A DNA stretch of 63,780 bases, the filler included, from an uncultured Methanosarcinales archaeon (GTDB lineage: Archaea > Nanobdellota > Nanobdellia > Woesearchaeales > CAZKBD01), in assembly GCA_964550945.1 (NCBI GenBank). It is 3 parts of 3 records of this genome, joined end to end, with 100 filler letters (N's around TTAATTAATTAA, not from the genome) between each part and the next. Parts side by side here need not be neighbours in the genome. Positions count along the whole stretch, not along the records: positions 1 to 28,967 come from CAZKBD010000011.1; 2 more parts are not named here. One strand, given 5' to 3'. Of the stretch, positions 3,071-57,914 are shown piece by piece. The first letter of the stretch is position 1; every line of letters starts with the position of its first letter. The position numbers and the translations under genes were made by a program. The notes under the pieces are model-generated. The model saw only the letters and a program-made list of their open reading frames with translations. It had not been told where the DNA came from and searched no databases.

Positions 3071-3232
3071 ATGAAGATAGTCCAAAGCGACATTAGGGGC
3101 CAGATAGTAATACCCAAAAAAATCAGGAAACAGCTGGATATAGGAGAGGAAGCTGCGTTCTGGGTATATGTCGATAATAACAATATAGTTCTGAAGAAAA
3201 TAGAAAAACCTAAGCTGAAAAATGAAAAATAA
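3071..3232 (+). CDS. AbrB/MazE/SpoVT-family DNA-binding protein, 53 aa (not in ORF track)
   Basis: Manual translation MKIVQSDIRGQIVIPKKIRKQLDIGEEAAFWVYVDNNNIVLKKIEKPKLKNEK; GQIVIPKxIR signature; overlaps the start of the giant gene at 3222. Confidence 0.88.
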   Translation: MKIVQSDIRGQIVIPKKIRKQLDIGEEAAFWVYVDNNNIVLKKIEKPKLKNEK

Positions 3233-6200: not shown

Positions 6201-9200
6201 TCAAATGCTCCAAAATCCTCTCCTTCTGTATCATCAGATGGAAAAGTATGTTTTGGGATCGATGGAAAAGGTCCCTTCTGGCCAGCAGGCGCATACAAAA
6301 ACGGATCAGTCGCATGCTTAAACGCTTTAACTAATAATCCAAACGGAGAATTAATCTGGGAATATCAATTTGGAGAGGGTGTCACTGTTGACTCATCCCC
6401 TGCAATAGCCAATAATAAATTGTACATGGTAGCTAGTGATGGTTATTTGTATGCTTTTGGCGATAGTGTTGCTTCAGACACAACACCTCCTTCTTCAGTC
6501 ACTAATCTGCAAAGTAGTGCAATAACAAATTCATCAATTATTTGGTCTTGGATTAATCCTTCGGATGCAGATTTTGACAAGACAATTCTTTATTTGAATA
6601 GTGTTAATGTCGTGAACTTGTCAAAACCAATTGCAAGTTATACTGCAAATGGCTTATTGAACAACACATTGTACAATTTGACTATACATACTGCAGATAA
6701 TTCGGGAAATGTTAACGCAACAAACATACAAAATCTCACTTGGACTTTGCAGAATTCTAACCCTACCCCGCCTGCAGCAATAACTAATTTCACAGTTGAT
6801 GTCACAAATGCCACTTCAAGCACAATCAGCTTAAGCTGGAATCCAGTAAGTGGCGCTGCAAGTTATAATGTTTACATTACTCCAGAGCCAGAAACACTTG
6901 GAAATTATAGCATGATGAAACTGATGGGGAATAATTCTGGAAATACAAACACCACATTTGTAATAAACAATGTTGCAGCAGCAGTTGACACATTCATAAG
7001 AGTTGAAGCAATAAATGATTCTGGGGTTTTTGCTGCAGGAGATGCGCACGCAAAGACAGTTGGTGGGCAAGCAGTAACCCTTGACAATGAATTAAGGGAA
7101 GTGCATATGGTTGCTCCAAACATCATGGAGCTTGTGCTTGAGAACAAAGGCATTAGATTTTATTATGACCCTGCTGCAGGATTTACCACAGGCAGCGTTT
7201 ATTTTGACAATGGGCCTATATGGCAAAATGGGAACTGGCAGATAAGAAAGAAAGACGGCTCGATAATTTCAGTCAATAATATTTATAGGAATTCTTATGC
7301 TGTAAACATGCCTTATTATTTCTTGAACGGGCAGTCAGAAGATAATTTCTTTTATGATATTGACCATAGGGTATTTCTTGTTTTAGACAATAATCTCAGC
7401 CAAAAAGAGATTCTATCTATTGAAGGGCCTTTTAACTTAAATTTCACGCTTTTGTTTAGCGATAATTATCTTGAGACTGATGTGATCCAGGTCAATCAAG
7501 TTGGCTATCATCCAGATGCCACAAAAAGATTTGCTTATGTTTCAATGTGGATGGGTGATGGGCGGGGAATGGACTTTACAGATTATCCATCATACGCTGA
7601 AGTGTTGAAAGAGCCTAATCAAACATTAACCTCAAGAAGCATTGTGCTTTCAAACATAACTCTTGAAAAAAGATATGTTGCAGACTCATGCAATGCATCT
7701 GGAATATTTAATGGCACATGCTACACAGGATGGTATGACAACCAAAATGGCTCAGGAAGCATTTATTATAATTGTACAACTATTGCTAAGTCAAATACAG
7801 TTCCACTGCTTGATTATGATTGTGATACTGATGCAAAAGTAAGGGACATAAACCTTTCAGCGCTTCAACCAAATGATAACTCTTTTAGATATCGTGTCAA
7901 AATTCCAGGAGTTGGAGTCAGTTATCCAACAATGGTAAGCAAAGAGGCTTTCTTTAAAGCTTACTACACTATCGCAAGGGGGATTTATTACAACAGATGG
8001 TGCGGAAATTATTCAACTGAATTCACTGAATGGAGCAGGCCTCCTGACCATTGCTTTGCATATGTAAGCGATGTTCCTGTAAGATGGGCTGCTCAATTCC
8101 CATCAACTACGCCAATATTTGAAACAATGCCTGTAGTTGGAGGCCATAGGGATGCAGGAGATTATGACTTAAGGCCGCATCATACAGGAATCCCTCAAAT
8201 GATAATGAAAGGGTATGAAACTAATAAAAACTCATTAATCAATACTGATAACCAGCTTAACATTCCTGAATCTGGAAATGGGATTCCAGACATACTTGAT
8301 GAAGCATTATGGAATTTAAAGTCATGGGAAGCATTCCAGATGGGAACTGATGGCTTAGGCGATGCTTGTGACTTATGCCCTGATGACACTGAAAATGATG
8401 CTGACGGCGACAAAGTGTGCGCAGGCACAAGATTTAATTCATCAATGATAGCAGGAGGGGACAACTGCCCAAGAAAATATAACCCTCTTCAAGAAGATTT
8501 AGATGGTGATACAATCGGCGATGCATGTGATTCAAGCACAATCATTGACAGGGACTCTGATGGGATAACTGACAATGCAGATAATTGCATTGGAAGCTCA
8601 TTGAAAACAGATACAGACAGCGATTGGGTTGGCGATGCTTGTGATTCTTGCCCAAATGACCCTGAAAATGACATTGATGGTGATTTAATATGTTATGGTT
8701 CTGNNNNNNNNNNNNNNNNNNNNNNNNNNNNNNNNNNNNNNNNNNNNNNNNNNNNNNNNNNNNNNNNNNNNNNNNNNNNNNNNNNNNNNNNNNNNNNNNN
8801 NNNGATGATCCTCTTCCATATTTCACTTATTCTAGAGATCCTAGTGTTACTGCAAGAGTATCTGCTATATTTGCGCAAGCCTCAAGATTATTGAAAGATT
8901 TTGACCAAACACCAATTTGCGGAAACCCAAGATGCAAATCTGATGAGCTTTATAATAGGTCATTAAGGGCTTATAACTATGCATTATACACTCATGCAAG
9001 AGAAGACTTTATGGTTTATGCTGCAAGTGAGCTTTATCTTCTTACTAATGATTCAATCTACAAAACATATCTTGAAAGCAGAAACATTAATGCAGGGAAC
9101 TTTATAGGAAGAAGTGTCGGTTCTACGGAATATGAAGGAGCGCCAGGTACGAGCCCATATTATGCAATTGATTACTTTTCAGGATACCTGCAAAGCAATA

Positions 9201-12200
9201 CCACATTACAAAGCAATCCACCAAGCGCACTGCAATTATTGATCTTAAGCCAAGAAGTAATGCAAACGAATGACGACCTTATCAACACTGAGCTCTTGAA
9301 TGCACACCGAAGCCCAATAACAAGCTCAGGCTGGGGCACTAGTACAACACCTACACTTGCAATACCTGCTTCATTTAATTATTATTTTACTGGAAACTTG
9401 ACTAATGGCTCAAAACAGCAAATATTTGACATGTGGAGTGAGAGCGCTGATTTCATGCTTGGAGCAAATCCTTTTGGCGTTTCTTGGGTTGTTGGGCTTG
9501 GAACAAAATATCCACAAGATGCGCTGCATGTTGACTCACTAGTATTTAAGAAAATGGATATTGGAAAGCAAATGCCAGGAACTGTTGTTTATGGCCCCGG
9601 AAAAAGCCCTTTCTCAGGATTAGATTATTATCGCGCCGTAAAAAAATCAATGTATCCTAATCCAGATAATTATCCTGACAAGCTAAAATATGCTGATGCG
9701 CATACTCAAGTAACAATGGCTGAGTTTGCTGTGCTTGAGACAGATGCTCCTGCACTTGAATTATTTGCTGCGCTAATTAATGCTGGGATGATGCCCCCTG
9801 CTAATTGGGATCCTTATCAGCCAGACCATAAGAATACGCTGCCTGATTTCCCAGTAAAAAACCCTGAAACATTGATAGATACCAGAAACAATGACCTGAA
9901 CTCAATACTTTCATACACCGATGATCTGCCTTTATCCCTTGACCAAAACACAATAGCATTGTATGATCTTGACACCAATTATGAGGATTCTTCATCAAAC
10001 AACCTTGATTTAACTGCTTATGGAAATGCAAGTATCGTAAATATCCCTTCATGGTCTGGAGTCTCAAAAAGCTTTGTCAAGTTTAATGGCAAAGATGATT
10101 ATCTTAAAGTAAGCATCCCTGACAGCATTATACTGCCAACTTCAGGGTTTAATATTACTATTGAAGGAAAATTCTATCCAAAATTCTTCGCTGCTGGGGT
10201 AGGTGTTGAGCAGAACACCTTTATTGGGCTTAACCAGCCTTCCGGATCCAATTTTAAGCTATTAATCCCTCAATGGGAGTACAGATCTCCTTTATTATAT
10301 CTGGATAACAATAAAATAGGGCATGCTAAAGAATGGACAACTAAAGTGGATACATCCAGGTGGCATAATTTTAAGATGATTGCAAAGGGAAATGAATCAT
10401 ACCTTTTTATTGACAATCAACTGATTTTTGCTAACGCCATTAGCCTGTCTTCAGAATGGCAGGATACAGCATCATGGAATCTTGAGCTTGGCCATTTTGA
10501 CGGATATATTGATGAAGTAAAAATAAGCAAAGGCAGCGAGTTTATAGACAATTATCCTCCTGTCTTTGTTGAGCTTTTAGGAACCCAGATCAGGCCTGAT
10601 GAAAGCCTTAACACTAACATTTCTGTCTTTGATGCAACTGGAATCAGCAGTTTATGGATCAATGATACTAACAATTTCCAGATTTCAAGACAAGAGACCG
10701 ATGGAAGAAAAGAAAGATGGCTTCTCAGCAATAAGGTCGCTCTGCAAAATGAAACCTACTATCCAATAAACGTAAGCGTAAATGACACTAGCGGGAATAT
10801 TAATTCTGAGATGATAGTTATATACTCAACATTGCCTTTAGTAGATGCCTCTCCACCTTATTTTGTAAGCGCGCCTAATGCATTAATAAGCTATTTAAGT
10901 CCACTTCATCATCAGATAAGCGCAACTGATGATAGGGGAATTGCAAGATTTGAAGTTAATAACACTCAATTTAAGATTGATAGCTCTGGGCTTTTAGAGT
11001 ATAATGGGATATTCCCTCAGAAAGGAAATTATACTCTAAGGATAACTGTTTATGACACTTCAGAAAAATCTGCAAGCACAGAACTAACTGTGTCAATTGT
11101 GGAAGACCTCATTGCTCCGGTCTTTACCAATATCATAAACCAGTACATTAGGCCATCTATCCCTTTAAGCTATGATATAAACGCAACTGATGACGTTGCA
11201 ATTGGAAGTTTTTCGATAAATGACACCATCAATTTCAAAATCAATGCGAGTTCAGGACTCTTAGAGAATAATACTATCTTATCCTTAGGACAATACTGGT
11301 TAAATGTTTCTGTAAACGATACTTCTGGAAATAGGGCATCTTCAATTTTATTAATTGAGGTTACTTCATCAACTATGTTATTTAGCTGTTTTAATATAAA
11401 TCAGTCTGGAAACTATTTATTAATGAATTCGCTTGTTAATGTTCTGACTTGTATGAACATTACTGCAAGCAATGTCACACTTGACTGCCAAGGCTATACC
11501 CTAGATGGAGATCTAACCGGTGCATCAGGAGATCGCGCAATTTATGCAATAGGCAACAGCACAAATTACTTGAAGAATATAACTGTAAAAAACTGTAATG
11601 TTAAAGAGCTGCAATTTGGCGTTCAATTCAGTTATGTTAATGATTCGGTTATATCAAACACTAATGCTTATTCAGTGTGGTCTAATTCTGGATCAGGAGG
11701 ATTTGACTTTGCCAACACAAATAACCTAATACTCCAAAATATCAGTTCTTACAATCAGGGTTTAGGGTATGGCATATCACTCCCATCTACCTCCAAATAT
11801 AATAATATCACTAATTCAATTATTTATAACACTGCCATAGGAATTAAAATAGGAAGTACTGTCAGCAATATCATTAAGAATTCATATATCTATAATAATT
11901 CTCTTGGAGTTAACAACACCTATGCCTCATCTAGCAATAACCTCTTTTACAATAACCTAATTAATAATACCAATAATCTTAACTTTAATCCAGGAGCAAG
12001 TGCATTATTCAACTCAACACAAACTTCTGGCACAAACATCATTGGCGGAAATTTAATCGGCGGCAATTTCTGGGCAAATCCTTCTGGCAACGGATACTCA
12101 GAGACATGCGCTGATGCTAACAACACAGGCATTTGTGATGTTCCTTTGAATGTAACCTCAAGCACTGCTTGCCCTGGCTGCTCTGGCTATAACATCGATA

Positions 12201-12808
12201 TGCTGCCTTTGGCTGTTGTTGCTCCATCATGCACTGATTCTGATGGAGACGGCTTCAATATAACTGCTGGATGCGGCCTAATAGATTGCAACGACACAAA
12301 TCCATTAGTCAATCCTAGTGCTGTTGAGGTTTGTTGGAACGGAATTGATGACAACTGCAATAATCAAACTGACGAAGGCTGCCAGGCTTTGCCAATTTAT
12401 TCTAAATTTGATGGCTCTACCACTAATTTTACAGCTGAATTAGATATCACATCTGTTGAGAATTCTGTTCTAGAGAACACAACCTATGGTAAGATTGAGT
12501 TTGGCCCAGAGAGTGTTGACTTCTCAGGTATGAATTTAGATTCTTATGTTTTCATAGAAAACAATCTGGTTGGCATTGATAATGCTTATCTTCCAAATCT
12601 GGCTGCTCATAATGCTACTATAACATTATATGGCATAAGCTTTAATAATCCATTAATCTTGGAGAATGGCATTCAATGCTCTCATTGCGTAAGGAATAGT
12701 TATGATGGCAGTACTCTTGTGTTCACTGTTGGCCATTTCAGCAATTTCACTGCTGCTGAAAGTGCTCAATGCATGTTGACTGATGCTTATTGGGAGATAC
12801 CTACATAA
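3222..12808 (+). CDS. Giant secreted multi-domain protein 1: S8 subtilase, PQQ-like beta-propeller, FN3-like, GH9 with TSP3 insert, LamG-like, Ig-like repeats, right-handed beta-helix, Cys-rich metal-binding motif, terminal HFS domain; spans the N gap at 8704-8803
   Basis: S8 triad DTG (4383), HGTH (4572), GTSMAAP (Ser 5076); WKY/SSPA propeller repeats ~5265-6465; GH9 motifs QVNQVGY, DAGD (8151), IPESGNGIPDILDE, DFMLGANPFGVSWVVGLG; ORFs 3222-8703 and 8804-12808 carry the two halves of one GH9 domain. Confidence 0.8.
8704..8803. other. Assembly gap (100 N, true length unknown)
   Basis: N run inside the TSP3 repeat tract. Confidence 0.99.
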
Positions 12809-12812
12809 AAAA

Positions 12813-15800
12813 ATGGCGATTCAATACAAAAAGTTGATGAAGATGAAATTGATTGACGTTTCCAAATTATTGGTGTTTGCTTGGTTGATCCTTAGCCTAT
12901 TTTTAGCTCCTGTTGCTGTTGCTGGCCAGTATAACAATCTTGAGTTCATAAAGACTGAGAATGTTGCTTATGATGTTGTTTTGCCTGGTAATTTTGCAAA
13001 GCTGGAGCCTATAACTCATTCTGATGGTTTTACAAAGAATTCGAGGATTTCTTTATATGCCGGCCCTGGATTAGCTTTTCCAGTCGATGTCATTAATATC
13101 TCTTCAAGCACAATTAGCTTAAGCTGGAATCCTGTCAGTGGCGCAGCAAGCTATAATATTTACATCACACCAGAGCCAGAAACACTTGGAAATTACACTT
13201 GGATGAAGTTGATGGGAAACAATTCAGGAAATACCAACACAACATTCATAATAAAAGATGTTGCAGCAGCAGTTGACACATTCATAAGAGTAGAGGCAAT
13301 AAATGCTTCTGGAGTATTCGCAGCAGGAGATGCGTATGCAAGGACAATTGGCGGGCAACTTGCCCAGATAGAGTTTGAATATGGAAATAGAAATAAATTA
13401 GATACTCCTTTAAAAGAAATTCATCTTGCTTCTCCAAACATAATACATTTAATATTATTTAATCCAGAAGTGCATTCATATTCTGGGATAAATAATTGGA
13501 TAGATGATGGTGTTAATGAAGTTATTAATTATACTGGATGGGACTGGCATGCTGGAAATTGGAGTGTCACAAGAAAAAATGGAGACCATATAAATGTGAC
13601 TAAGGTTTTCCGGCGTTCTGTTCCTGCTGGCCAATTTGATCCTGATTATGCAAGTTATCTTGAGTTTGACCATCATATATATCTTGTTTTGGATGAACAA
13701 GTAGGAAATAGTGAGATTCTTCAAATATCCCATAGTGGGGGCGCTAATAATCCTGATAGTTTTGAATTAGATCATCCATGTATGAGTAATACAAAAACAT
13801 TATTTGGTAAAAATGAGGTAAGTACTGACTTAAACTTAACTTTATTGTTTAGCGATAAATATCTTGTTTCATCATCAATTCAGGTAAATCAGTTAGGATA
13901 CAACCCAATCACAACAAAAAGATATGCATATGTTTCTGACTGGATGGGGCTTGATCTTAATGGAAATGCAAGTGGAGTGCCTCTTGATAATTATCCTGCC
14001 TTTGCTTTTGTCTTTAATAGCTCATCTTCAATCTTGTCAACAAAGCAGCCAATGATTAATAATATTCCTCTAAAAATAAGGTACCAGTGGGATCTTGGAA
14101 ATAAGAGTGGAATATGGAATGGCAGCTGTTTTATTGGAAATTTCACTGGACCAGTATGGAATGGTTCAGAATTGGTCAATGAGACTGTAGAAAAATATTA
14201 TAACTGTACTGTTAACAGTTATTCTCCATGGGTCATGCCTGCTGTTGATTATGATGTTGATGTTGGAGGACAGGTAAGGGAAATAAATCTCTCTGGCCTT
14301 CCAGAAAGTGATACTGATACTTATCAGGTTTATGTTCCAGGAGTTGGCGTTAGTTATCCAACTAGGGTAAGTGAGCTTGGAATCCAAAAAGCGTGGTATG
14401 TTTTTGAGAGGGGGATGTATCAAAATAGGTGGGGACGTGATTTACAGCCTCAATGGACTGATTGGACTAGGGCAGGAACAGATCATCCTTATGTTTATAC
14501 ATCTGAGAGGAGGGATGCAGGTTATGTTGGAAGGGTCTATTTTCCTAGCTATACTCCTCAGGTAGGCAAAAGGGAACTGCAAGGGGGACATCATGATGCA
14601 GGAGATCTTGACTTGCAGGTAGGCCACTATGCTAATGGTCTTAGATTACTTACAGCATATGAACTAAATCCTGATGCTTATCGTGATGGCCAATTGACAA
14701 TTCCAGAATCTGGAAATGGAATACCTGATCTGCTTGATGAGGGATTATACAGCATTCACCTATGGGAGCAACTTCAAGAAAATAATGATAATGTTGGAAA
14801 TGCATGCGATGTTTGTCCTGATGATCCTGAAAATGATGTTGATGGAGATGGGATTTGTAAATTAGGAAGTTTTAGCAGTCCAATGATTGGGACAAATGAC
14901 AATTGCCCATGGCATTATAATCCTTCTCAAACTGACACTAATGGTGATGGAATTGGAGATGCTTGTGACACTAAGAATATATTTGATTCTGATAATGACA
15001 GCATATTAGACAATGTTGATAAGTGTATTACAATCTCAAATGCTAACCAGTCTGATTCTGATAAAGATGGCATAGGTGATGCTTGCGATTTGTGTCCAGA
15101 TGATGCTGAAAATGATGTTGATGGAGATGGTTTTTGTAAAGGCAGTAGGTTTATTGCTCCCATGATTGGTAAAAATGACACTTGTTCAAATAAATATAAC
15201 CCTTACCAATCTGATTGTGATAATGATACTATTGGCGATGCGTGTGATGATAATAATAACTTGGCTATTTGTACTCGCGCAATAAATGTGGATAATAAAG
15301 GCTATTTAGATACGGACAGTGATACTATCTATGACCATTTGGACAATTGTATTATTGTTTCTAATCCTTCTCAGTTGGATAGTGATAATGATACTATTGG
15401 CGATGCTTGTGACTTACCAAACATTCCTCCTACTCTAAACTCAGACAGTGATTTTATATTAAATGATGGGGATAACAGTGGCAATACTACAGATAATCGG
15501 TGCACTGGCGGAAACAAGATTAATTGTGATGATAATTGTCCAACAAAATATAATCCTGATCAGGCAGACATTGATCATGACAGAATAGGTGATGCATGCG
15601 ATAATTATAATGCATTTGATTATGATGGGGATGATGCAACCTACTATTATTATTCTTATGCGCACTATTTTGATAACTGCATTGAGATGCCTAATCAAGG
15701 CCAAGAGGATTATGACTCTGATGAGGTAGGAGACGCATGTGACCCTTGCTTTTCTGACCCTTCAAATGATGTTGATGGTGACAGAGTATGTGTTGGAGAT

Positions 15801-18800
15801 GGATTTAAGTCTCCAATGATTAGGGACTTTGATAATTGTCCGATGATTTATAATCTAGACCAAAATGATTGTGATAATGATTTTGTAGGTGATGCTTGTG
15901 ATCAAGATAGTTATTGCGCTCAAAAGAATGATACGGATAATGATGGAATTTCGGATTATGCTGATAATTGCGTTGATGTATATAATCCCATTCAAGAAGA
16001 TTACTCTCCTTATGAATCTTTTGGAGTAAGGCAAGGTGTTCAAACATCTGGGCATCTTATGAGTCTTGATGCAAGATATTCAGATGAGGATACCACTCCT
16101 TATTGGACATATTCTAGAAATCCAGCGCATACTGCAAGAGTAGCAGGGTTATTTGCAAAAGCATCTTATTTACTTAAAAATATTGATCAAACTGCATTGT
16201 GTGGAACTCCAACCTGTAAATCAGACGAATTAAAAGAGCGAGCAATTAATGCATTCAACTATTCTTATTCTAATGGAGTTGTAGGAACTTATAATGGCGA
16301 AGTAGAAGACGGTGATAGCTTGTATTTCTTTGCTGCAGGAGAATTATACAGGCTTACAAACGATTCTTACTATCGTAATATCTTTGAGGCGCATTGGAAT
16401 ACAAGTGAAAGTTATAATCAAGGCCCAACTTTCGATCCTTACTTTACTTTTGCATATGCATTGGCTTCTGATAATCAGACAATACTTAACCAGATATTTA
16501 ATAGGTATGACACTTTGGATAATAGTGTATTTGGAGCTGCAAACAAGAAGTATACTGATGGGCAAGTTATTAGAATGGAACTTAATCATGCGCATAGAAA
16601 TCCTAGAGGTGCTGGCCAAAGAGGTGGATGGGGTGCAGAATCAATTGTTGGGCAATACCTTGACAAATCTTATATTAGGCTATATCTTGATTCAATAAGG
16701 CCTTTAACTGCTGCTAAAAAGCAGCAGATAATTGACACTATAAGCATGACTGCGGATTATGTTCTTGGAGGAAACCCTTCAAATTTTGTTTATACTACAG
16801 GACTTGGACAAAATTATCCGCAAGATGCTCTTTGGTGGGACTCTGAATCATTTTATGAAGATGGTTATGGGAATATTCCAGGATATGCTGTATTTGGAAA
16901 TGCAGGTGTTCCATGTTGGGACGGCGGCTATGATATAGTTAATCAGATAACTTTTCCTTATCAATCTAGGATGCCTAACCAGAATAGGTATTTTGATGCA
17001 GGATCAGTTGTCACAAATAATGAAGGCGCTCCTGGGTTAAATTCAGAGTTTCTTCTTGACATAAGCCAATTAATGCCTGCTAACTTTTATACGCCCACTT
17101 CCTGGCTTCCAGGGCAAGAGGATAATAAGAAATCATTAGTAACACTTACTGATATTGATACAACCCCTCCAAGTGCTCCAACAGGATTTTCTGCTGTTAA
17201 GACTGAATCAAAAGTTTCACTTTCATGGAATCCTTCAACTGATGCAGAATCAGAATTATTATGGTATCAGGTTTATAGGGGTGGAAAGCTCATTGGGCAT
17301 ACTAATGCATATAGCGGAGATACTTCTTATGTTGATGAAGGATTAAAATCTAACACTACTTATGAATATAAAGTTGTTTCAGCAAACATAGGGTTTTTGT
17401 TAAGTGACCCAGCTTCTATGTCTGTAACAACAGATATTGATCAGACTGGTCCTGTGATTACTGAATTAGTTTCAAGTATAAATCCTAACATAATAAAGAT
17501 TATCTTTAATGAGCCACTTGATAATATTAGTGCAGAAAACATTAATAGTTATTCAGTCAATAATGGTCTGATAATTTCAGGAGCATATCTTCTTGATGAT
17601 AATATTACGGTTATATTAACAACAAGTGAACAAAAGCCTGATGTTTTGTATAATCTAAACACAACAGGAGTATTAGATAAATCAGGAAATCCTTCACTAG
17701 ATATAATTAGTTATGAATTCTTATGGGATCCTAACTATAATTTAAAAAGAAGAATTTGGAATGGAGAAGGAGTAAACGAAGATCATGTTTCAGTTGGCTA
17801 TGGCAGCATTATTAATGTTTCTGCTATGCCTAATGATGTGTTTCAGGGAAATTATTCATTTAAAGGAACTCCAACTAATTATTATGATCCTTTAATTAAT
17901 TTTTTTACAATTGAAAGAATTAGGACTGAGATATATAGAAAAGATATTACTGATTATGACACATTAATTTTCTGGGCAAAATCAGATCAGTCAGGAAGAT
18001 CATTCACTCTAAGATTGGGAAGTTATGATTCTGCAACAAATAATATTGATATACTTCCGTTTATAGAGGGAGGCACACTTGATGCAGCTTATAGAAAAGT
18101 GGTTATTCCTTTTATTAATTTGACTAATGATAATCATATCTTTAAATCAGGGTTAGAAACATTTTATCTTGGGAAATTAGGTAATCCTGATTACTCAATA
18201 TTTATCGATGATATTTGGGTTGTGGATCAAAATTTAGTTGATACTGTAAACCCTTCTTTTAAGTCTATCTGGAATATTACTGTAGCTTACATTTATAATA
18301 TCAGTGAGGATTATGAGGCTGTTGATTTAAGCGGAATTGACACTTACTGGGTTAATGACAGCAGGTTTAATATTAGCAATACTGGCTTGTTTAAGTTTAG
18401 TGTAGGTAATCCTGGTGTGGGTGTGTATTTTGTTAATGTTAGTGCTAATGACACTGTAGGTTATTCTGTTTCTGAAGCGGTTATAGTTAATATAACTGAT
18501 GATGTTATTCCACCTCAGTTTACTAATATTTATAATTTTAGCGTGCCTGATAATGAGACTTTTTATCATGACTTTGATGCAACTGACAATATTAATTCAG
18601 AATGCAATGGCTTGACTTATACTGTCAGTGATTCTAATTTTGCCATAAACTGTTCTGGGGTTATAAGGAGGGGTACTAATCCTTTATCTGTTCGTGATTA
18701 TATTCTTAATGTGACTGTTACTGATGTTTCAAGAAACTTTGTTTATCAAACAATTAATGTTAGTGTGCTTAATAGTACTGGCCCTGATGTTACTGCGCCT

Positions 18801-21800
18801 GTTTTTACTAATTTAAATGATTTGACAATTAGTTATGGCAATATCCTAGGATACAATATTGATTCTTTTGATGATCGAGGCACTGAGTGCAATGGAATTA
18901 GTTATTCTATTAATGACTCTAGGTTCTTTATTAACTGCACTGGCTTGTTGATGTTTGACTGGAATGCCCTTGTTAAAGGGGCTTATTCTGTTAATATTGC
19001 TGCTTTTGATTCTGCAAATAACTCTGTTTCAAAGATTATTGCAGTAAACATTGTTCAGGATAATATTCCGCCGTCTTTTATTGGCTTAAGGAATAGGGCT
19101 ATTAATTATGGCGCAAACTTGTATTATGAGTTTGATACGCAGGATGATGTTGGAGTAGATAATGCATGGATTAATGATACTGTAAGGTTTAAGTTGAGTA
19201 GAACTAATGGAAGCAAGTTTCTGCTTGAGAACAACACTGTTCTTAATTTGGGTTATTATTGGTTGAATGTTAGTGTTAATGATACTAGCGGCAACCAGTT
19301 TAGTAGTCAGATTGAGGTTTGGGTTACTGAGAATATTGTCATTACTGGATGCACATCCATCGATTCTTCAGGGGATTATGTTTTGATCAATGATATCACT
19401 AATTATCATGGCAGTTGTATTAAGATTAATGCAAGCAATGTAACATTTAATTGCGGGGGTTATGCTATTGATGGTGATGATAGCTCAAATAGTGTTGGCC
19501 TGCTTATTGAAGGGATTAATAGCTCAAGCAAATTGAAGAATGTTTATGTTTCTAATTGTTTTATTTCTGATTTTGATAAGGGATTAAAGATGAATAATGT
19601 TGACAATTCTAGTGTAACTGATATCGAGGTTAATTCCAATATTGATGGGTTTGTTCTTTATACTGCAAAATATAACTTGTTTAATAATGTCAACTCTATA
19701 AATAATACTGATGATGGATTTGAGATGAGTGCTTGGAGTGCTAATGCGGAGTATAATAATTTTACAAAAGGAGTTATTAAGGATAATAAGGATTGTGGTA
19801 TTAATGTCAATCAGGATGGGTATTATAATCGGTTTTCTAATTTTAGCATTATAGGTAANNNNNNNNNNNNNNNNNNNNNNNNNNNNNNNNNNNNNNNNNN
19901 NNNNNNNNNNNNNNNNNNNNNNNNNNNNNNNNNNNNNNNNNNNNNNNNNNNNNNNNNNATTGAGAAAAATATAAGTTTAGACTGTCTTGGAAATACGATT
20001 GATGGAACTGATGTTTATACTGATTATGGAATTAGGATCATTAGTGGCTTGGTGAATGTTTCTGTTAGTAATTGTATTGTTAATGATTTTGGCAAGGGAG
20101 GCATTTATTCTGAGGCCTCTAATTCCTCTTTTTCCAATGTTTTTATTAGTTCTGGCAGCTATGCTGGAGGCAATACAGGCAATGCGTTTACTGTTACTGG
20201 ATCATATAATGTTTTGAGTGGGATTAATGTTTCTGAGACTGTGGGCCATGGTATTGTGATTGGAGGGGATTTTAATAATCTAAGTGGAGGCTTTGTTGCA
20301 GGTTCATATAATGGTTCGTATAGTGGAATTTATATCAATGCTAATGCTAACAATAATACTATTACTGGCTTTAAGGTTTATAATAATTCAAACAGCGGGG
20401 TTTATTTTGATTCTGTCAATTCCAATAATAACTTTTTTTATAATAACTTTTTTAATAATTCGCTTAATGTTAATAATTCAGTTAATGCTAACAATTATTT
20501 CAGCACAACAAACCAATCTGGCACAAACATTATTGGCGGAAACTTGATTGGAGGCAACTTCTGGGCAAATCCTTCTGGTACTGGATACTCACAGACTTGT
20601 GCTGATGTAAACAGCACTGGATTCTGTGATGCTCCTCTAAATGTTTCTTCAAGCCTTGCTTGCCCTGGCTGCTCTGGCTATAACATCGATATGCTGCCTT
20701 TGACTTTGGGTGTTGTTGCTGACACAACCCCTCCAGCTTCAGTCACTAATCTGCAAAGTAGTGCAATAACAAATTCATCAATCAACTGGACTTGGACAAA
20801 TCCTTTAGATGCTGACTTTAACAAGACAATCCTTTATCTGAATTCAATTAACATTGTGAACTTGTCAACACCAATTGTGAGTTATACTGCAACAAGCCTT
20901 ACAAATAACACTTTATACAACCTAACTATCCATACTGCAGATAATTCTGGAAACATAAACACAACAAACATACAAAACCTATCTTGGACTTTGCAGAATG
21001 GTGTAGTTTGCGTTGATAATGATGCTGATGGCTATAACATAACAGGCGGCTCTTGTGGTTTAGTTGACTGCAACGATACTAATTCCAATATCAATCCCGG
21101 CGCTGTTGAGGTTTGCGATGATAACCAGGACAATAATTGCAATAGCCAGGCTGATTGCAATGACACTGCTTGCACAGGACAGCCTTCCTGTTTTGCTTTC
21201 CCTGTTTACCCAAATGTAACAGCAGGCACTGAAATAAATATTACTATTGAAGGAGATAATTGTACTGGCAGGGAAGTAAATCTAAACTATCTTGAGATTG
21301 ATTTCTTTACCAATAATGATTCAATCAGCGGTTATGGATTGCCAGCAACAGCAACATTTACTCTAAACAAAACAAAAACCCCATGGGTTGCTCAGTGGTT
21401 TAATGATACTGATGGGGAGAATAACATTAATCCAGAGCTCCAATTCATTGCTGACTGTAATGGAAGCCAAATTTCTTCAAACATTATCGAGATAACTCCT
21501 TCAGAAGTAGCTTGTATAGATTCTGATAGTGACGGCTATAATGTCACAAGCCCAGTTTGCCAAACTGGCGATGATTGCGATGATTCTGATCCTATTGAGC
21601 ATCCAGGCCAAGTTTGGTATAGGGATGCAGATAGCGATTTATACAGCAATGGCTCAACCTTAACGCAATGCCTAAGGCCAGCTTTATACAACATTTCAAC
21701 AGAGCTAACAGCAACCTCTGGAGATTGCGATGACACTAATGCCAACGTAAACCCAATTAGAACTGAAATCTGCAACAATATTGATGACAACTGTGCTGGA

Positions 21801-24800
21801 GGAATAGATGAGGGAGTCTTATCAACATTCTATAGAGACTTTGATTCAGATACTTTCGGCAACTTAACAAACACGATCCAGAACTGTACAGCCCCAGCAG
21901 GATATGTAGCAAACAACACAGATTGCAATGATTATATAACTACTATCTACCCAGAAGCGCCAGAATTATGCAATGGCATCAGTGATGACTGCGATGCTGC
22001 TGTTGACGAAATATTCACAAACGAAAGCTGCTCATTTGTTTGTATTGCATCAAGCTTCAACTGGTCTAATAATGGGGGTAATCTAAACTGCTGCGGCAAC
22101 AACCCAGGAGAAGATAATCCCTATCAAACAACTGAAATAATATGCAGTGATACAAGAGACAATGATTGCAATGGCTTAACAGATTTAAATGATCCTTCCT
22201 GCATAAGCTGTGTTGATGATGACAATGATGGATATAATGCCACAAGCCCAGTCTGCCCAAGCGGCAATGATTGTAATGACAACAACAACTTAACTTATCC
22301 AGGAGCAATTGAAATATGCGATAATGATGACAACAATTGCGATGGCACTATAGATAATATTACCCAATCTTGCGGCTCAGGCGCTTGTGCTGGCAATCAA
22401 CTATGCACTTTAGGAGCTTGGAGCAATTGCTCAACTTACGGCCTTGATACAGGAATATGTGCTGTTTGTAATGCTAATGGAAGTGAAATTTACGATTCAA
22501 GCCAAAACACAGATTGCATAGCAACAGCCTGCCCTTCAGATGGCTGCGGCTTAGGCAGCTGCAATGCAAACATATTTGCTGACTACCCAATAAGCGTGCC
22601 AAACCAATGCTCTGCAATCTACACTTGCACTTCAAATATATGCGCAGCAGCCTGTGAACCAGATAATGATTATGATAATTATTCTCCAAGCTGCGGTGAC
22701 TGCAATGACAATACTAACATCACTTACCCAGGAGCCCTGGAAATCTGCGATACTTTAGACAATGACTGCAATTCTGGAACAGCTGATGGCAGCAGTGAAC
22801 TATGGCTGGGCCAAAGCTGTGATGGCCCTGATTCAGACCTTTGCAATGAAGGGACTTTCATCTGCAATACTGGCTCGCAATCTTGCTCAGACTCAACCTC
22901 AAACAACATTGAACTGTGCAACAGCATTGATGATGACTGCAATCCTCTAACAACAGATGGCATTAATGAGCCATGGTACAGCCAGCCAACAAGCTGTGGA
23001 GTTGGAGCTTGCCAGGGAGCTGTAGGGCAACTAACCTGCACAGCTGGATCACAATACAACACCTGCAACCCATACTTGAATGCAACCAATGAAAGTTGTG
23101 GTGATAATAGCGGTTATGACGGAATAGACAACAATTGTGATGGTACAATAGACCTAAACTGTGAATCCTATTGCGACCAGGATAATGATACTTACTCACC
23201 GCATATGATCTGCGCTCTTGCAGGTTATGGCATTAATGATTGTTATGACAATGACGCAAACATCAATCCTGGAATGCCTGATTTATGCAATAGCATAAAT
23301 GATGATTGTGATTCAAGCCCTGACGGCATAGATGAGCCTTGGTACAATAACCCAACAACATGCGGCGTAGGTGTTTGCGCAAATACCGGTAACTGGCTTT
23401 GCATTGCAGGAAATGCAGCTGACACATGCGCAGCAGGAACTCCAACAGGCAATGATGATAATTGTAATGGCCTGGATGAGAACTGCAATAGCATAGCTGA
23501 TGAAAACTACATTCCAACTCAAACAACTTGCGGGATTGGTGAATGCATAAGAACCGGGCAGCTAGTCTGCATTAGCAGTGATGAAATTAACAATTGCGTT
23601 CCTGGAGCACCTCAACCAGAAATTTGCGATGAGTTAGACAACAATTGCAATAGCCAGGCAGATGAAGGAGTTACAACAACTTATTACCAGGATATTGATA
23701 ATGATGCTTATGGAAATTCAACTGTTACAATTGAAGCATGCTCGCTGCCATTCGGATATGCAGGGCAAAATAGTGACTGCAATGACCTTAACAGCTATAT
23801 CAATCCAGCTGCTGCTGAATTATGCAATGGGATTGATGACAACTGCAACATAACTGTTGATGAAGGCTTCACAAACGAAGCATGCAGCTATGTTTGCGAA
23901 TCAAATGCATTTATCTGGACAAATAACAATGGCAGCTTAAGCTGCTGCGGAGATAATATCTTAGAGGATTCTCCATATCAACTAACAGAAACTAACTGCA
24001 CTGATGGGAATGACAACGATTGCAATGGCTTGGCTGATTATAATGATCCTGTCTGTTATGAATGCGTTGATGCAGATACTGACACATTCTTTGCAATATC
24101 CCCTATTGCATGCCCAACAGGAAATGACTGCAATGATAATAACGCAACCATAAACCCAAATGCAGCTGAAATCTGTGATGGCCTTGATAATAACTGCAAT
24201 GCTCAAACAGACGAAACATTCGCTAATACTGATGGAGACGAATTAGCCGATTGTGTTGATCCAGATGATGATAATGACAGCGTAAATGACGCAACTGACA
24301 ATTGCCTATTAGTTCCAAATGCAAATCAAACAGATTCTGACGATGATAATCTAGGAGATGCCTGTGATATATATCCATTTGACCATGATAACGACGGATT
24401 TAATATAACAATAGACTGCGATGATTATGATATATCAATAAACACCACTTATTCCAGAGCTTGCGGCCAGAATATCGGAACTTGCACAGTTGGCAATCAA
24501 TCCTGCGCTGATGGTGTTTGGGCAGAATGCACAGGAAGATCTCCTGAAAATGAGACATGCAACAGCCTTGATGACAATTGCGATGGAAGAATAGATTGTA
24601 TAGAAAACTGCACATCTCCTATTAATCTGATGACACAAAGATACATCAACTTTAATTATACCAATCCATTTATGTTATACATCCCAGATTACGGAAAAAT
24701 TACCTTCACTGAAAATATCACCTTTGCTTGCGGAGCTGATATAGACTATCTGACAAACATTAACAAAGCTAAGATATCCATAGACTCAGGGGTTATCCCA

Positions 24801-25763
24801 GAATTAAACAAATCAGCGCGCATAGAATTGTATAACATTTCATTTAGTCACCCTCAAATATTAAGAGATAGCGCCATCTGCCCACCCTCAATTTGCACAA
24901 TCATAAACTACACTAATGGCACTTTAATCTTTGATGTGGCTCATTTCACAACCTATGAGGTTAGTGAGTCAGCCTATTGCGGAGATGGCATTTGCAATGG
25001 AGATGAGGCAAATGCAGATTGTCCGGCTGATTGCCCATCTTCAGGCAGCCCAGGTGGCAGTGGAGGTGGCGGAGGAGGCATCTCAGGAGGAGATGTCATT
25101 GGCGAGCAAAGATGCACTGAAAACTGGGACTGCTCAAGCTGGTCAGAATGCACGCCTCAGCAGCTGAGCTACAGGGTATGCACTGATTTAAATGATTGCG
25201 GCACAACTTTGTTCAAGCCATTCGAATCCAAATGGTGCTATTTCCCTGCTGCAGAAAATGTTACTGTACAAGAAAACATCACTGAAGAACAGCCATTATT
25301 AAGCCCAGAGCCAGAGCCTTTGTTGAGCATAAGCGCCAGAAAGATATCAGATGACTACATGCTTGTTTCTTTTGACATAACAAACCTAGACCCAACTATC
25401 GACCTCAACACAGCAGCGATAGAACTCAATATAAACAAAGGCAGAAGGACTTATTATGTTGACTATTTAGATAAGCTTAAGATAAGGGCAGGCGCCAATT
25501 TAGTGATTGAAAAAGAATATCCTACAAGATACTTAAGCAATGATATTTACGAAATTAAAGCAACATTATTCGGCAAGGGCTTTAAGAAAGCAGTTACAAC
25601 AACAAATATAGATTTGAATAAAGATGAACCCGGTAATAGGATTACCGGAGATGTTGTTGGAGACACTAACCCGCAACCAAGCCCTTTCAAATTCATCAAT
25701 CTAGCCCTGATAATTTTAATATTAATTGTAGCTTTTAAACTAAGGAGTATAAAAAAGAGGTGA
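12813..25763 (+). CDS. Giant membrane-anchored multi-domain protein 2: FN3-like, GH9 with ~410-aa TSP3 insert, FN3, Ig-like, CBM-like, beta-helices, many Cys-rich metal-binding repeats, TSP3, HFT domain, Gly linker, C-terminal TM; spans the N gap at 19859-19958
   Basis: Signal peptide ending PVAVA; QVNQLGY, DAGD (14595), IPESGNGIPDLLDE, DYVLGGNP, TNNE; repeated GDACD and DCND...ELCNGIDDNC motifs; C-terminal INLALIILILIVAFKLRSIKKR. Confidence 0.85.
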   Translation: MAIQYKKLMKMKLIDVSKLLVFAWLILSLFLAPVAVAGQYNNLEFIKTENVAYDVVLPGNFAKLEPITHSDGFTKNSRISLYAGPGLAFPVDVINISSSTISLSWNPVSGAASYNIYITPEPETLGNYTWMKLMGNNSGNTNTTFIIKDVAAAVDTFIRVEAINASGVFAAGDAYARTIGGQLAQIEFEYGNRNKLDTPLKEIHLASPNIIHLILFNPEVHSYSGINNWIDDGVNEVINYTGWDWHAGNWSVTRKNGDHINVTKVFRRSVPAGQFDPDYASYLEFDHHIYLVLDEQVGNSEILQISHSGGANNPDSFELDHPCMSNTKTLFGKNEVSTDLNLTLLFSDKYLVSSSIQVNQLGYNPITTKRYAYVSDWMGLDLNGNASGVPLDNYPAFAFVFNSSSSILSTKQPMINNIPLKIRYQWDLGNKSGIWNGSCFIGNFTGPVWNGSELVNETVEKYYNCTVNSYSPWVMPAVDYDVDVGGQVREINLSGLPESDTDTYQVYVPGVGVSYPTRVSELGIQKAWYVFERGMYQNRWGRDLQPQWTDWTRAGTDHPYVYTSERRDAGYVGRVYFPSYTPQVGKRELQGGHHDAGDLDLQVGHYANGLRLLTAYELNPDAYRDGQLTIPESGNGIPDLLDEGLYSIHLWEQLQENNDNVGNACDVCPDDPENDVDGDGICKLGSFSSPMIGTNDNCPWHYNPSQTDTNGDGIGDACDTKNIFDSDNDSILDNVDKCITISNANQSDSDKDGIGDACDLCPDDAENDVDGDGFCKGSRFIAPMIGKNDTCSNKYNPYQSDCDNDTIGDACDDNNNLAICTRAINVDNKGYLDTDSDTIYDHLDNCIIVSNPSQLDSDNDTIGDACDLPNIPPTLNSDSDFILNDGDNSGNTTDNRCTGGNKINCDDNCPTKYNPDQADIDHDRIGDACDNYNAFDYDGDDATYYYYSYAHYFDNCIEMPNQGQEDYDSDEVGDACDPCFSDPSNDVDGDRVCVGDGFKSPMIRDFDNCPMIYNLDQNDCDNDFVGDACDQDSYCAQKNDTDNDGISDYADNCVDVYNPIQEDYSPYESFGVRQGVQTSGHLMSLDARYSDEDTTPYWTYSRNPAHTARVAGLFAKASYLLKNIDQTALCGTPTCKSDELKERAINAFNYSYSNGVVGTYNGEVEDGDSLYFFAAGELYRLTNDSYYRNIFEAHWNTSESYNQGPTFDPYFTFAYALASDNQTILNQIFNRYDTLDNSVFGAANKKYTDGQVIRMELNHAHRNPRGAGQRGGWGAESIVGQYLDKSYIRLYLDSIRPLTAAKKQQIIDTISMTADYVLGGNPSNFVYTTGLGQNYPQDALWWDSESFYEDGYGNIPGYAVFGNAGVPCWDGGYDIVNQITFPYQSRMPNQNRYFDAGSVVTNNEGAPGLNSEFLLDISQLMPANFYTPTSWLPGQEDNKKSLVTLTDIDTTPPSAPTGFSAVKTESKVSLSWNPSTDAESELLWYQVYRGGKLIGHTNAYSGDTSYVDEGLKSNTTYEYKVVSANIGFLLSDPASMSVTTDIDQTGPVITELVSSINPNIIKIIFNEPLDNISAENINSYSVNNGLIISGAYLLDDNITVILTTSEQKPDVLYNLNTTGVLDKSGNPSLDIISYEFLWDPNYNLKRRIWNGEGVNEDHVSVGYGSIINVSAMPNDVFQGNYSFKGTPTNYYDPLINFFTIERIRTEIYRKDITDYDTLIFWAKSDQSGRSFTLRLGSYDSATNNIDILPFIEGGTLDAAYRKVVIPFINLTNDNHIFKSGLETFYLGKLGNPDYSIFIDDIWVVDQNLVDTVNPSFKSIWNITVAYIYNISEDYEAVDLSGIDTYWVNDSRFNISNTGLFKFSVGNPGVGVYFVNVSANDTVGYSVSEAVIVNITDDVIPPQFTNIYNFSVPDNETFYHDFDATDNINSECNGLTYTVSDSNFAINCSGVIRRGTNPLSVRDYILNVTVTDVSRNFVYQTINVSVLNSTGPDVTAPVFTNLNDLTISYGNILGYNIDSFDDRGTECNGISYSINDSRFFINCTGLLMFDWNALVKGAYSVNIAAFDSANNSVSKIIAVNIVQDNIPPSFIGLRNRAINYGANLYYEFDTQDDVGVDNAWINDTVRFKLSRTNGSKFLLENNTVLNLGYYWLNVSVNDTSGNQFSSQIEVWVTENIVITGCTSIDSSGDYVLINDITNYHGSCIKINASNVTFNCGGYAIDGDDSSNSVGLLIEGINSSSKLKNVYVSNCFISDFDKGLKMNNVDNSSVTDIEVNSNIDGFVLYTAKYNLFNNVNSINNTDDGFEMSAWSANAEYNNFTKGVIKDNKDCGINVNQDGYYNRFSNFSIIGXXXXXXXXXXXXXXXXXXXXXXXXXXXXXXXXXXIEKNISLDCLGNTIDGTDVYTDYGIRIISGLVNVSVSNCIVNDFGKGGIYSEASNSSFSNVFISSGSYAGGNTGNAFTVTGSYNVLSGINVSETVGHGIVIGGDFNNLSGGFVAGSYNGSYSGIYINANANNNTITGFKVYNNSNSGVYFDSVNSNNNFFYNNFFNNSLNVNNSVNANNYFSTTNQSGTNIIGGNLIGGNFWANPSGTGYSQTCADVNSTGFCDAPLNVSSSLACPGCSGYNIDMLPLTLGVVADTTPPASVTNLQSSAITNSSINWTWTNPLDADFNKTILYLNSINIVNLSTPIVSYTATSLTNNTLYNLTIHTADNSGNINTTNIQNLSWTLQNGVVCVDNDADGYNITGGSCGLVDCNDTNSNINPGAVEVCDDNQDNNCNSQADCNDTACTGQPSCFAFPVYPNVTAGTEINITIEGDNCTGREVNLNYLEIDFFTNNDSISGYGLPATATFTLNKTKTPWVAQWFNDTDGENNINPELQFIADCNGSQISSNIIEITPSEVACIDSDSDGYNVTSPVCQTGDDCDDSDPIEHPGQVWYRDADSDLYSNGSTLTQCLRPALYNISTELTATSGDCDDTNANVNPIRTEICNNIDDNCAGGIDEGVLSTFYRDFDSDTFGNLTNTIQNCTAPAGYVANNTDCNDYITTIYPEAPELCNGISDDCDAAVDEIFTNESCSFVCIASSFNWSNNGGNLNCCGNNPGEDNPYQTTEIICSDTRDNDCNGLTDLNDPSCISCVDDDNDGYNATSPVCPSGNDCNDNNNLTYPGAIEICDNDDNNCDGTIDNITQSCGSGACAGNQLCTLGAWSNCSTYGLDTGICAVCNANGSEIYDSSQNTDCIATACPSDGCGLGSCNANIFADYPISVPNQCSAIYTCTSNICAAACEPDNDYDNYSPSCGDCNDNTNITYPGALEICDTLDNDCNSGTADGSSELWLGQSCDGPDSDLCNEGTFICNTGSQSCSDSTSNNIELCNSIDDDCNPLTTDGINEPWYSQPTSCGVGACQGAVGQLTCTAGSQYNTCNPYLNATNESCGDNSGYDGIDNNCDGTIDLNCESYCDQDNDTYSPHMICALAGYGINDCYDNDANINPGMPDLCNSINDDCDSSPDGIDEPWYNNPTTCGVGVCANTGNWLCIAGNAADTCAAGTPTGNDDNCNGLDENCNSIADENYIPTQTTCGIGECIRTGQLVCISSDEINNCVPGAPQPEICDELDNNCNSQADEGVTTTYYQDIDNDAYGNSTVTIEACSLPFGYAGQNSDCNDLNSYINPAAAELCNGIDDNCNITVDEGFTNEACSYVCESNAFIWTNNNGSLSCCGDNILEDSPYQLTETNCTDGNDNDCNGLADYNDPVCYECVDADTDTFFAISPIACPTGNDCNDNNATINPNAAEICDGLDNNCNAQTDETFANTDGDELADCVDPDDDNDSVNDATDNCLLVPNANQTDSDDDNLGDACDIYPFDHDNDGFNITIDCDDYDISINTTYSRACGQNIGTCTVGNQSCADGVWAECTGRSPENETCNSLDDNCDGRIDCIENCTSPINLMTQRYINFNYTNPFMLYIPDYGKITFTENITFACGADIDYLTNINKAKISIDSGVIPELNKSARIELYNISFSHPQILRDSAICPPSICTIINYTNGTLIFDVAHFTTYEVSESAYCGDGICNGDEANADCPADCPSSGSPGGSGGGGGGISGGDVIGEQRCTENWDCSSWSECTPQQLSYRVCTDLNDCGTTLFKPFESKWCYFPAAENVTVQENITEEQPLLSPEPEPLLSISARKISDDYMLVSFDITNLDPTIDLNTAAIELNINKGRRTYYVDYLDKLKIRAGANLVIEKEYPTRYLSNDIYEIKATLFGKGFKKAVTTTNIDLNKDEPGNRITGDVVGDTNPQPSPFKFINLALIILILIVAFKLRSIKKR
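19859..19958. other. Assembly gap (100 N, true length unknown)
   Basis: N run; the flanks belong to two different beta-helix domains, so the real gap is probably longer than 100 bp. Confidence 0.99.
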
Positions 25764-28967: not shown

Positions 28968-29067
28968 NNNNNNNNNNNNNNNNNNNNNNNNNNNNNNNNN
29001 NNNNNNNNNNNTTAATTAATTAANNNNNNNNNNNNNNNNNNNNNNNNNNNNNNNNNNNNNNNNNNNN
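28968..29067. other. Artificial contig linker (N44-TTAATTAATTAA-N44)
   Basis: Six-frame stop spacer; adjacency across it is not biological evidence. Confidence 0.97.
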
Positions 29068-57500: not shown

Positions 57501-57814
57501 TGATAAACACGAAAGAGTCTTAACGCACAGCGAATCAAAGCTAAAAGGATTAGGCCATTCTGGAATCGCTAAAATACAAGAAGAAGTTAAAAGCGAATCA
57601 GTATGTAAAAATGAATTATCAGAGCTATCGAAAGAAGTAGGTTATCTTAAGAATTTAGCAAGCTCAGGAAAAACAAATCTCGGTTCTAAAATCGTAAAAT
57701 TAGCAGCTGTTTATTGCACATACCTTAACAAAGCAGAAACATTGAGAAAAGGAATAATTGAACGGACAGAACAAGCTAAGGAGCTGATCAATAAAGAGAA
57801 ATCTGAGAAAGAAC
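54523..57814 (+). CDS. Large Lys/Glu/Gln-rich coiled-coil protein with ~265-273-aa tandem repeats, truncated by contig end
   Basis: Recurring F(H/S)LFKT(K/E)EE, IDKH, G(Q/K)TNL, KAET motifs; GAGGT SD. Confidence 0.8.
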
Positions 57815-57914
57815 NNNNNNNNNNNNNNNNNNNNNNNNNNNNNNNNNNNNNNNNNNNNTTAATTAATTAANNNNNNNNNNNNNNNNNNNNNNNNNNNNNN
57901 NNNNNNNNNNNNNN
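57815..57914. other. Artificial contig linker (N44-TTAATTAATTAA-N44)
   Basis: Six-frame stop spacer. Confidence 0.97.

Follow-up and report, generated by a model that had tools for sequence, protein, structure and literature searches.

Two tandem giant genes of an uncultured archaeon raise the question of how a catalytic barrel of glycoside hydrolase family 9 (GH9) comes to be split by an array of thrombospondin type 3 (TSP3) repeats, and what becomes of the enzyme. Their products, protein 1 and protein 2, each have such a split GH9 domain and are encoded on one contig (C11, bases 1-28967; GenBank GCA_964550945.1, source genome 1.97 Mb, 92% complete) within the 63,780-nucleotide stretch of joined contigs analysed here (the window). 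From sequence and structure models, we favour, with a probability of about 0.55, a surface-displayed GH9 hydrolase, probably active, whose rim carries an acidic, calcium-binding loop that closes on itself and varies in length. The features on which this reading depends are as follows.

12783..25763, + strand: protein 2, 4326 aa
13083..14093, + strand: protein 2 N-terminal beta-sandwich and CelD_N-like Ig region (subfamily model A1, positions 26-305; weak fn3 and CelD_N matches)
14241..14780, + strand: protein 2 GH9 barrel N-part, ending in the helix preceding Q665-E666
14592-14606, + strand: protein 2 catalytic-base motif HDAGD
14781..16022, + strand: protein 2 TSP3 array, 414 aa, 21.5% Asp, 28 Cys; seven whole units and one opened
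14796..14810, + strand: protein 2 opening half-unit GNACD, second half of a TSP3 repeat, with leftover Cys675
15963..15998, + strand: protein 2 closing half-unit DNC...NP.QED, first half of a TSP3 repeat, with leftover Cys1063
16023..17138, + strand: protein 2 GH9 barrel C-part
16821-16841, + strand: protein 2 Trp replacing the family His
16992-17027, + strand: protein 2 catalytic-acid motif D...NNE
3222-12808, + strand: protein 1, whole span, crossing a 100-N gap
3222..8703, + strand: protein 1 5' part (signal-like segment, S8 peptidase, PQQ-like propeller, fn3, Ig region, GH9 N-part)
8148-8162, + strand: protein 1 RDAGD motif
8349..8703, + strand: protein 1 TSP3 insert, visible part, 118 aa, continuing into the gap
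8704..8803, no strand: 100-N scaffold gap in protein 1, concealing the insert end
8804..12808, + strand: protein 1 3' part (GH9 C-part, then NosD-like beta-helix and MopE-type repeat)
9515-9535, + strand: protein 1 LHVD
9689-9727, + strand: protein 1 D...MAE

Insertion site

The initial annotation had the GH9 sequence of protein 2 interrupted between WEQLQE and GVRQGV by eight TSP3 units, and that of protein 1 at the same point. The break in protein 2 is as described: WEQLQE ends at nt 14780 (aa 666), GVRQGV begins at nt 16023 (aa 1081), and eight G[DN]ACD motifs lie between the flanks in a single open frame free of N. Along the subfamily hidden Markov model (HMM) A1, the match ahead of the insert ends at position 482 and the match behind it begins at position 480. 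The eight motifs do not equal eight units, however; they make up seven complete DNC...GDACD units and an opened one, with half of it lying at each end. In protein 1 the left edge is at the same point (WEAFQMGT ends at nt 8348, followed by three GDACD motifs), but the end of the insert falls inside the gap at 8704-8803, which also covers ~25 GH9 residues. The frame change across this gap is not evidence for a frameshift. A loose contig end past 8703 (run X4) extends the protein 1 insert in frame by another repeat unit; no contig across the gap was found among the public-run contigs.

The host site is, as proposed, the GH9 Q-x-x-D-G turn, which reads Q-E-x-D-G-G-V in the family and which we take, from the helix order and GH9 topology, to follow an outer helix on the rim of the catalytic face. 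Its length is three residues in 211/231 measured homologues, a count that omits protein 2 and P0231 (hmmalign forced both to three residues) and 10 further proteins that were not measurable. In P0050, P0062 and P0077 this turn is a natural loop of 18-23 aa, which argues for a permissive site.

An array opened within a repeat

The protein 2 insert matches TSP_3 (PF02412) with 73.8 bits (E 8.6e-21; cut-off 25) and profiles of COMP and TSP-2 with E about 3e-22, and is 40-50% identical to free TSP3 arrays, as a typical Cys-rich array. Across 1399 units in 117 free arrays, a whole unit consists of DNC...NP.Q, eight residues and GDACD. All inserts (5/5) begin with the second half of the repeat (D-x-x-G-x-A/V-C-D), six residues past the GH9 Gln, and all complete ones (3/3) close with its first half (DNC...N..Q.D); free arrays start with DNC in 107/117. 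At the left edge the GH9 Q-E takes the place of the repeat's Q-x-D, and at the right edge the repeat's Q-x-D enters GH9 (D-G)-G-V-R. Read in this way, the sequences place the opening within a repeat unit, between Q-x-D and D-G-x-G-D-A-C-D. The array was also said to be expandable, and the inserts indeed differ in their number of whole units (3 vs 7).

Insert Cys counts are even (28, 14 and, in P0231 with one letter read as in locus L007, 12). These residues fall into three recurring pairs, of which the CPDD...DG..C pair is jointly absent in three units of P0231 and P0303; their spacing and number fit a disulfide within each repeat from DNC to GDACD. After this bookkeeping only the first and last Cys lack a partner, and both are kept throughout. 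Because the remaining Cys fall into pairs, the first and last (Cys675 and Cys1063 in protein 2) likely pair with each other, which would rebuild one unit and hold the insert ends together.

Within our own set, nine proteins had a total of 13 gaps that passed a filter. Five gaps, foreign segments of 115-156 residues, one each in P0272 and P0284 and three in P0301, open clearly at the Q-x-D/D-G-x-G-D-A-C-D point; the others are short or resemble variant repeats. The GH9 case would be this arrangement inside-out, with the array as guest and an enzyme turn as host. In the GH9 proteins the opened repeat holds no whole foreign domain; GH9 lies outside it, in two halves.

GH9 fold and catalytic residues

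The GH9 C-halves match PF00759 with 51 and 61 bits (cut-off 27.7). The N-half alone has no PF00759 match but is recognised by comparison with 3x17 (E 3e-14) and by the subfamily HMM (5e-76), and profile comparison to 3x17 gives E 3e-58. The insert accounts for Pfam recognising only the C-terminal half of these domains. Both paralogs have the catalytic motifs (HDAGD/RDAGD and D...NNE/D...MAE); D-A-[GA]-D is retained in 5/5 insert carriers and D...E in the 3/3 that reach that region. We take the two Asp of DAGD and the Glu with its upstream Asp to be the catalytic residues, assigning their roles from CelD, and the His of the P-x-H loop to be a GH9 active-site residue. This His is kept in protein 1 (LHVD) and is Trp in protein 2, as in the uninserted P0005.

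An AlphaFold model of protein 2 (aa 351-1450, 72 sequences in the alignment) has both flanks mostly at a predicted local distance difference test (pLDDT) score >90, with a predicted template modelling (pTM) score of 0.69. It superposes on CelD (1clc) across both flanks with a template modelling (TM) score of 0.83; other GH9 chains, in one-flank alignments, reach a TM of about 0.5. A model of the homologue P0006, with TSP3 arrays added to the alignment, has pLDDT 84.5 and pTM 0.80, its insert mostly at 60-85 and partly ordered with a strand at each junction, and matches CelD with Z 33.2 (root mean square deviation 2.8 Å over 506 of 534 CelD residues). Both flanks thus model as one CelD-type Ig plus (alpha/alpha)6 barrel, the outcome predicted for an intact fold.

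Homologues and origin

The homologue set comprises 242 database proteins, all from a single Ig-GH9 subfamily that is uncharacterised. N-flank searches supplied the best 120 of 348 matches and the best 150 of 1561, to which cluster members and two matches of the junction search were added. Named members are mostly Hydrogenedentes, Patescibacteria and other bacteria, and two are archaeal. A GH9 domain split by TSP3 is rare: the motif G[DNT][AVT]CD was found in 5/242, two of which (P0123 and P0264) are near-copies of the window genes. Carriers from other organisms are P0006, whose loop has 187 residues, P0231, with about 190 (seen in locus L007 as well), and P0303 (partial). A junction-spanning protein search returned mostly TSP3 arrays, with GH9-subfamily sequence in P0123, P0264 and P0303 only among the 120 matches listed. 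The junction DNA pattern gave one true match of three in metagenome contigs (L007, from the P0231 organism) and none of two in genome contigs, where fixed spacing would miss variants. No subfamily member was found among 400 same-order genomes, 400 same-class genomes (overlapping sets) or the 60 nearest genomes; 12 longer homologues contained no TSP3, and the Atlas returned generic GH9 clusters only, at 0.80 or below.

A quick tree of the N-half places the five carriers together with the uninserted Pacearchaeota protein P0020 (Shimodaira-Hasegawa-like approximate likelihood ratio test, SH-aLRT, 91; four carriers at 95). Flank identity among carriers is 45-55% in the N-half and 29-34% in the C-half, and proteins 1 and 2 are mutual best matches right after the insert (65%). 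Junction sequences are alike at both ends, which argues for a single origin of the insert, and the simplest reading of the sequences is that the insert arose once and its repeat number changed later. The initial annotation had placed the insert at the same loop in both paralogs: the shared opening point stands, but one shared origin is favoured over two independent events. Of its two proposed routes, growth out of the QxxDG loop or recombination into it, recombination is favoured, as the insert is a typical Cys-rich array opened where free arrays open.

Other characters of these proteins are less uniform. A ~50-aa Cys-containing insert in the Ig domain (about 14094-14240 and 7690-7810) is shared by proteins 1 and 2, P0006 and the uninserted P0020, whereas P0231 and P0303 lack it; in the C-half, only proteins 1 and 2 and P0006 have a CG...CKS loop. 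The conflict of both characters with TSP3 presence hints at mosaicism or precise loss. P0123 is identical to protein 1 at 1822/1827 positions and P0264 to protein 2 at 604/606 from aa 685, and P0123, P0264 and P0303 each change to unrelated sequence within the array. The foreign parts of the two switched proteins tested were not found in this genome, and all three are more likely assembly chimeras than natural recombinants. Separately, in P0201 a ~230-aa LamG/ConA-like domain (about 469-698) interrupts the GH9 domain of this subfamily directly ahead of GGHHDAGD, a second, unrelated insertion site.

Bridging of the junctions in public assemblies

Window DNA is contained in public metagenome runs from groundwater and soil, the best-matching of which may be the source sample; no RNA run with window DNA was among the matching public runs listed. 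Contig X1-8 covers 14094-15910, including the left junction of protein 2, and X3-15 covers 15220-16469, including the right junction, both with 0 differing letters, as does X5-23 from a second study over 15900-16166. Contig X3-9 crosses the protein 1 junction with 7 differences. The fixed-spacing junction pattern has 2 matches in the window and 0 in 100 shuffles. Repeat copies are 61-76% alike as DNA, and protein 2 contains an internal duplication of 279 nt.

In a comparison of run X3 with window 7500-17500, short stretches of one contig (depth 5.5) resemble, in order, the N-part, the motif ahead of the insert, a TSP3 unit and the C-part, which suggests another insert-bearing homologue in that sample.

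Proposed mechanism and alternative explanations

In the reading that we favour, a TSP3 array opened mid-repeat takes the place of the three-residue turn in a CelD-type GH9 domain. The half-repeats at its ends would rejoin by a disulfide and calcium, holding the ends together; the barrel would fold whole, with the array hanging off the rim, and the beta-glycan hydrolase would stay active. The insertion would be a single ancestral event in an archaeal lineage, by recombination between the look-alike sequences Q-E-x-D-G-G-V (GH9) and Q-x-D-x-D-x-D-G-I-G (TSP3), with later gain or loss of repeats, and the loop a tolerated, length-variable acidic calcium-binding arm or spacer outside catalysis. What had been called a stalk inside an enzyme fold does lie within the GH9 domain, but at a surface turn on the rim; it probably forms a closed loop and not a stalk that separates two halves.

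Several observations weigh against this account. The protein 2 insert is mostly at pLDDT <50, both junctions of the P0006 model contain segments <50 (281-284 and 458-461), and the model alignments consist mostly of uninserted homologues, which bias AlphaFold toward an intact barrel. In protein 2 the family His is replaced by Trp, and C-half branches are long. Among free arrays, 45/117 also end in DNC, and the 3' end alone is thus not distinctive. A quick C-half tree (34 of 59 rows) scatters the carriers, and the insert label needs 4 changes on it.

Four other explanations were weighed. The insert might be a calcium and redox gate, in which the barrel or a substrate loop assembles only once the opened repeat closes, leaving the enzyme off until exported and possibly tracking calcium. 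Its position directly upstream of the conserved G-V-R-x-G...H-P loop, between the two catalytic motifs, and its retention in four organisms despite very diverged flanks would fit, and TSP3 calcium binding reportedly depends on the intra-repeat disulfide (Dai et al. 2017). Both flanks, however, model confidently even with the insert unfolded, the turn accepts other insertions, and most of the subfamily lacks an insert; we consider a gate unlikely. Slightly less credible is that the GH9 domain has drifted to a glycan-binding adhesin, the insert being tolerated as selection on catalysis relaxed. The His to Trp change in protein 2, no His at that place in P0006, DAAD instead of DAGD in three relatives, C-half branches of 1.6-1.75 and the occurrence of the insert in giant anchored surface proteins point that way, but the catalytic Asp, Asp and Glu are all retained, 8 of the top 120 homologues also have DAAD, and the uninserted P0005 has the Trp as well.

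The switches to unrelated sequence inside the arrays of P0123, P0303 and P0264, the disagreement between N-half and C-half trees, and the conflicting indel characters among P0020, P0006, P0231 and the window pair would be expected if the array were a recombination hinge, swapping half-barrels or unrelated heads and tails among surface-protein genes. Yet assemblers produce such switches at repeats, the foreign parts are not in this genome, grouping of the carriers in the C-half is not rejected by an approximately unbiased (AU) test (24 rows, p 0.33), the two paralogs match each other best just past the insert, and no joint with long sides was seen among the contigs compared; a hinge therefore seems improbable. 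An assembly artefact, with a repeat gene mis-joined to a GH9 gene, might be suspected in a low-depth metagenome assembly with N gaps and chimera-like database versions (P0264, P0123). It was rejected as extremely improbable, since zero-difference contigs bridge both protein 2 junctions and the repeat copies include no near-identical DNA; the same junction also occurs in both paralogs and three other organisms.

Implications

Insertion of one domain into another is known, and the LamG-like example of P0201 belongs to the same GH9 subfamily. What appears new is an array within GH9 opened mid-repeat, with complementary first and last half-units. It suggests a rule for placing a long repeat array in an enzyme fold left intact: open it mid-repeat and let the ends reseal. 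The rim site of the GH9 barrel, where natural inserts add 4 to 411 extra residues, is permissive and could be used by cellulase engineers for domain insertion or calcium switches. More broadly, and doubtfully, TSP3 arrays might be self-sealing mobile modules with a fixed socket site, able to enter any Q-x-x-D-G-like turn, the clasp making GH9 activity conditional on export and calcium; if so, this would be a natural calcium/redox switch built by domain insertion. Small-genome groundwater archaea would also display rare GH9 enzymes on giant surface proteins.

Other features of the window

From N- to C-terminus, protein 2 (+ strand) consists of a hydrophobic (signal-like) segment, the beta-sandwich/Ig region, split GH9, fn3, Ig-like domains and MopE-type repeats, and a C-terminal transmembrane anchor; a 100-N gap lies at 19859-19958. 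A ninth TSP3 unit, whole and isolated, is found at 24354-24368 amid the MopE-type repeats near its C-terminus. In protein 1, the S8 peptidase (4356-5186, + strand), a subtilase, and the PQQ-like propeller ahead of GH9 make a protease-glycosidase combination in one exported protein. The first beta-sandwich (about 6790-7080 and 13080-13370) is 78% alike between the paralogs over its first 115 columns vs 51% over the N-half, suggesting recent gene conversion there.

Paired 44-N runs at 28968-29067 and 57815-57914 are joins of separate contigs, and genes past 28967 are therefore not neighbours of the split GH9 genes. Elsewhere in the window, a Gins51 gene has Nanobdellota clusters as its nearest; together with the groundwater and soil runs that contain the DNA, it points to a DPANN archaeon of small genome. 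A 1115-aa open reading frame (54523-57870) without a Pfam match, in a stretch of extreme AT skew (0.41-0.43), reaches an N run.

Comparison with known systems

The Ig-GH9 enzymes compared were CelD of C. thermocellum (1clc, 4cj0), the metagenomic GH9 3x17, CbhA (1ut9), AaCel9A, BoGH9A (6dht) and the xanthanase 6fhj. The window proteins share with them the Ig-like domain and (alpha/alpha)6 barrel, the DAGD and D...E motifs, and a TM of 0.80-0.84 to CelD; unlike the window GH9, the known enzymes have a short turn and a barrel free of repeat arrays. With a structural identity of only about 20%, their substrates are not transferable to the window proteins. Among TSP3 (PF02412) systems, COMP (3fby), TSP-2 (1yo8, 2rhp) and TSP-1 (1ux6) have the same DNC...NP.Q.D.D.DG.GDACD units rich in Asp and Cys, whereas the window array starts and ends with complementary half-units and lies within a catalytic domain; its modelled path is not superposable on TSP-2 or COMP (TM 0.12-0.13). 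TSP3-type repeats are also reported for bacterial OmpA.

The initial annotation knew of no description of this architecture, and none of a GH9 domain split by a TSP3 array was found in the open literature searched in full text. In the available portions of the reports on an alpha-agarase (PMC11311870), a large extracellular protein, and on giant proteins of Omnitrophota (bioRxiv 10.1101/2023.11.21.568195), TSP3 repeats form separate domains and do not lie within a catalytic fold. The split Ig-like domains of RTX adhesins, as described in the accessible part of PMC10865825, are likewise interrupted by another domain and re-form around it, but there the host is a structural Ig fold projecting a lectin, with no TSP3, not a catalytic barrel. 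P0272, P0284 and P0301 share the opening point with the GH9 inserts; in those proteins the repeat hosts a domain, whereas in the GH9 proteins the array is itself the guest, in an enzyme turn that mimics the repeat.

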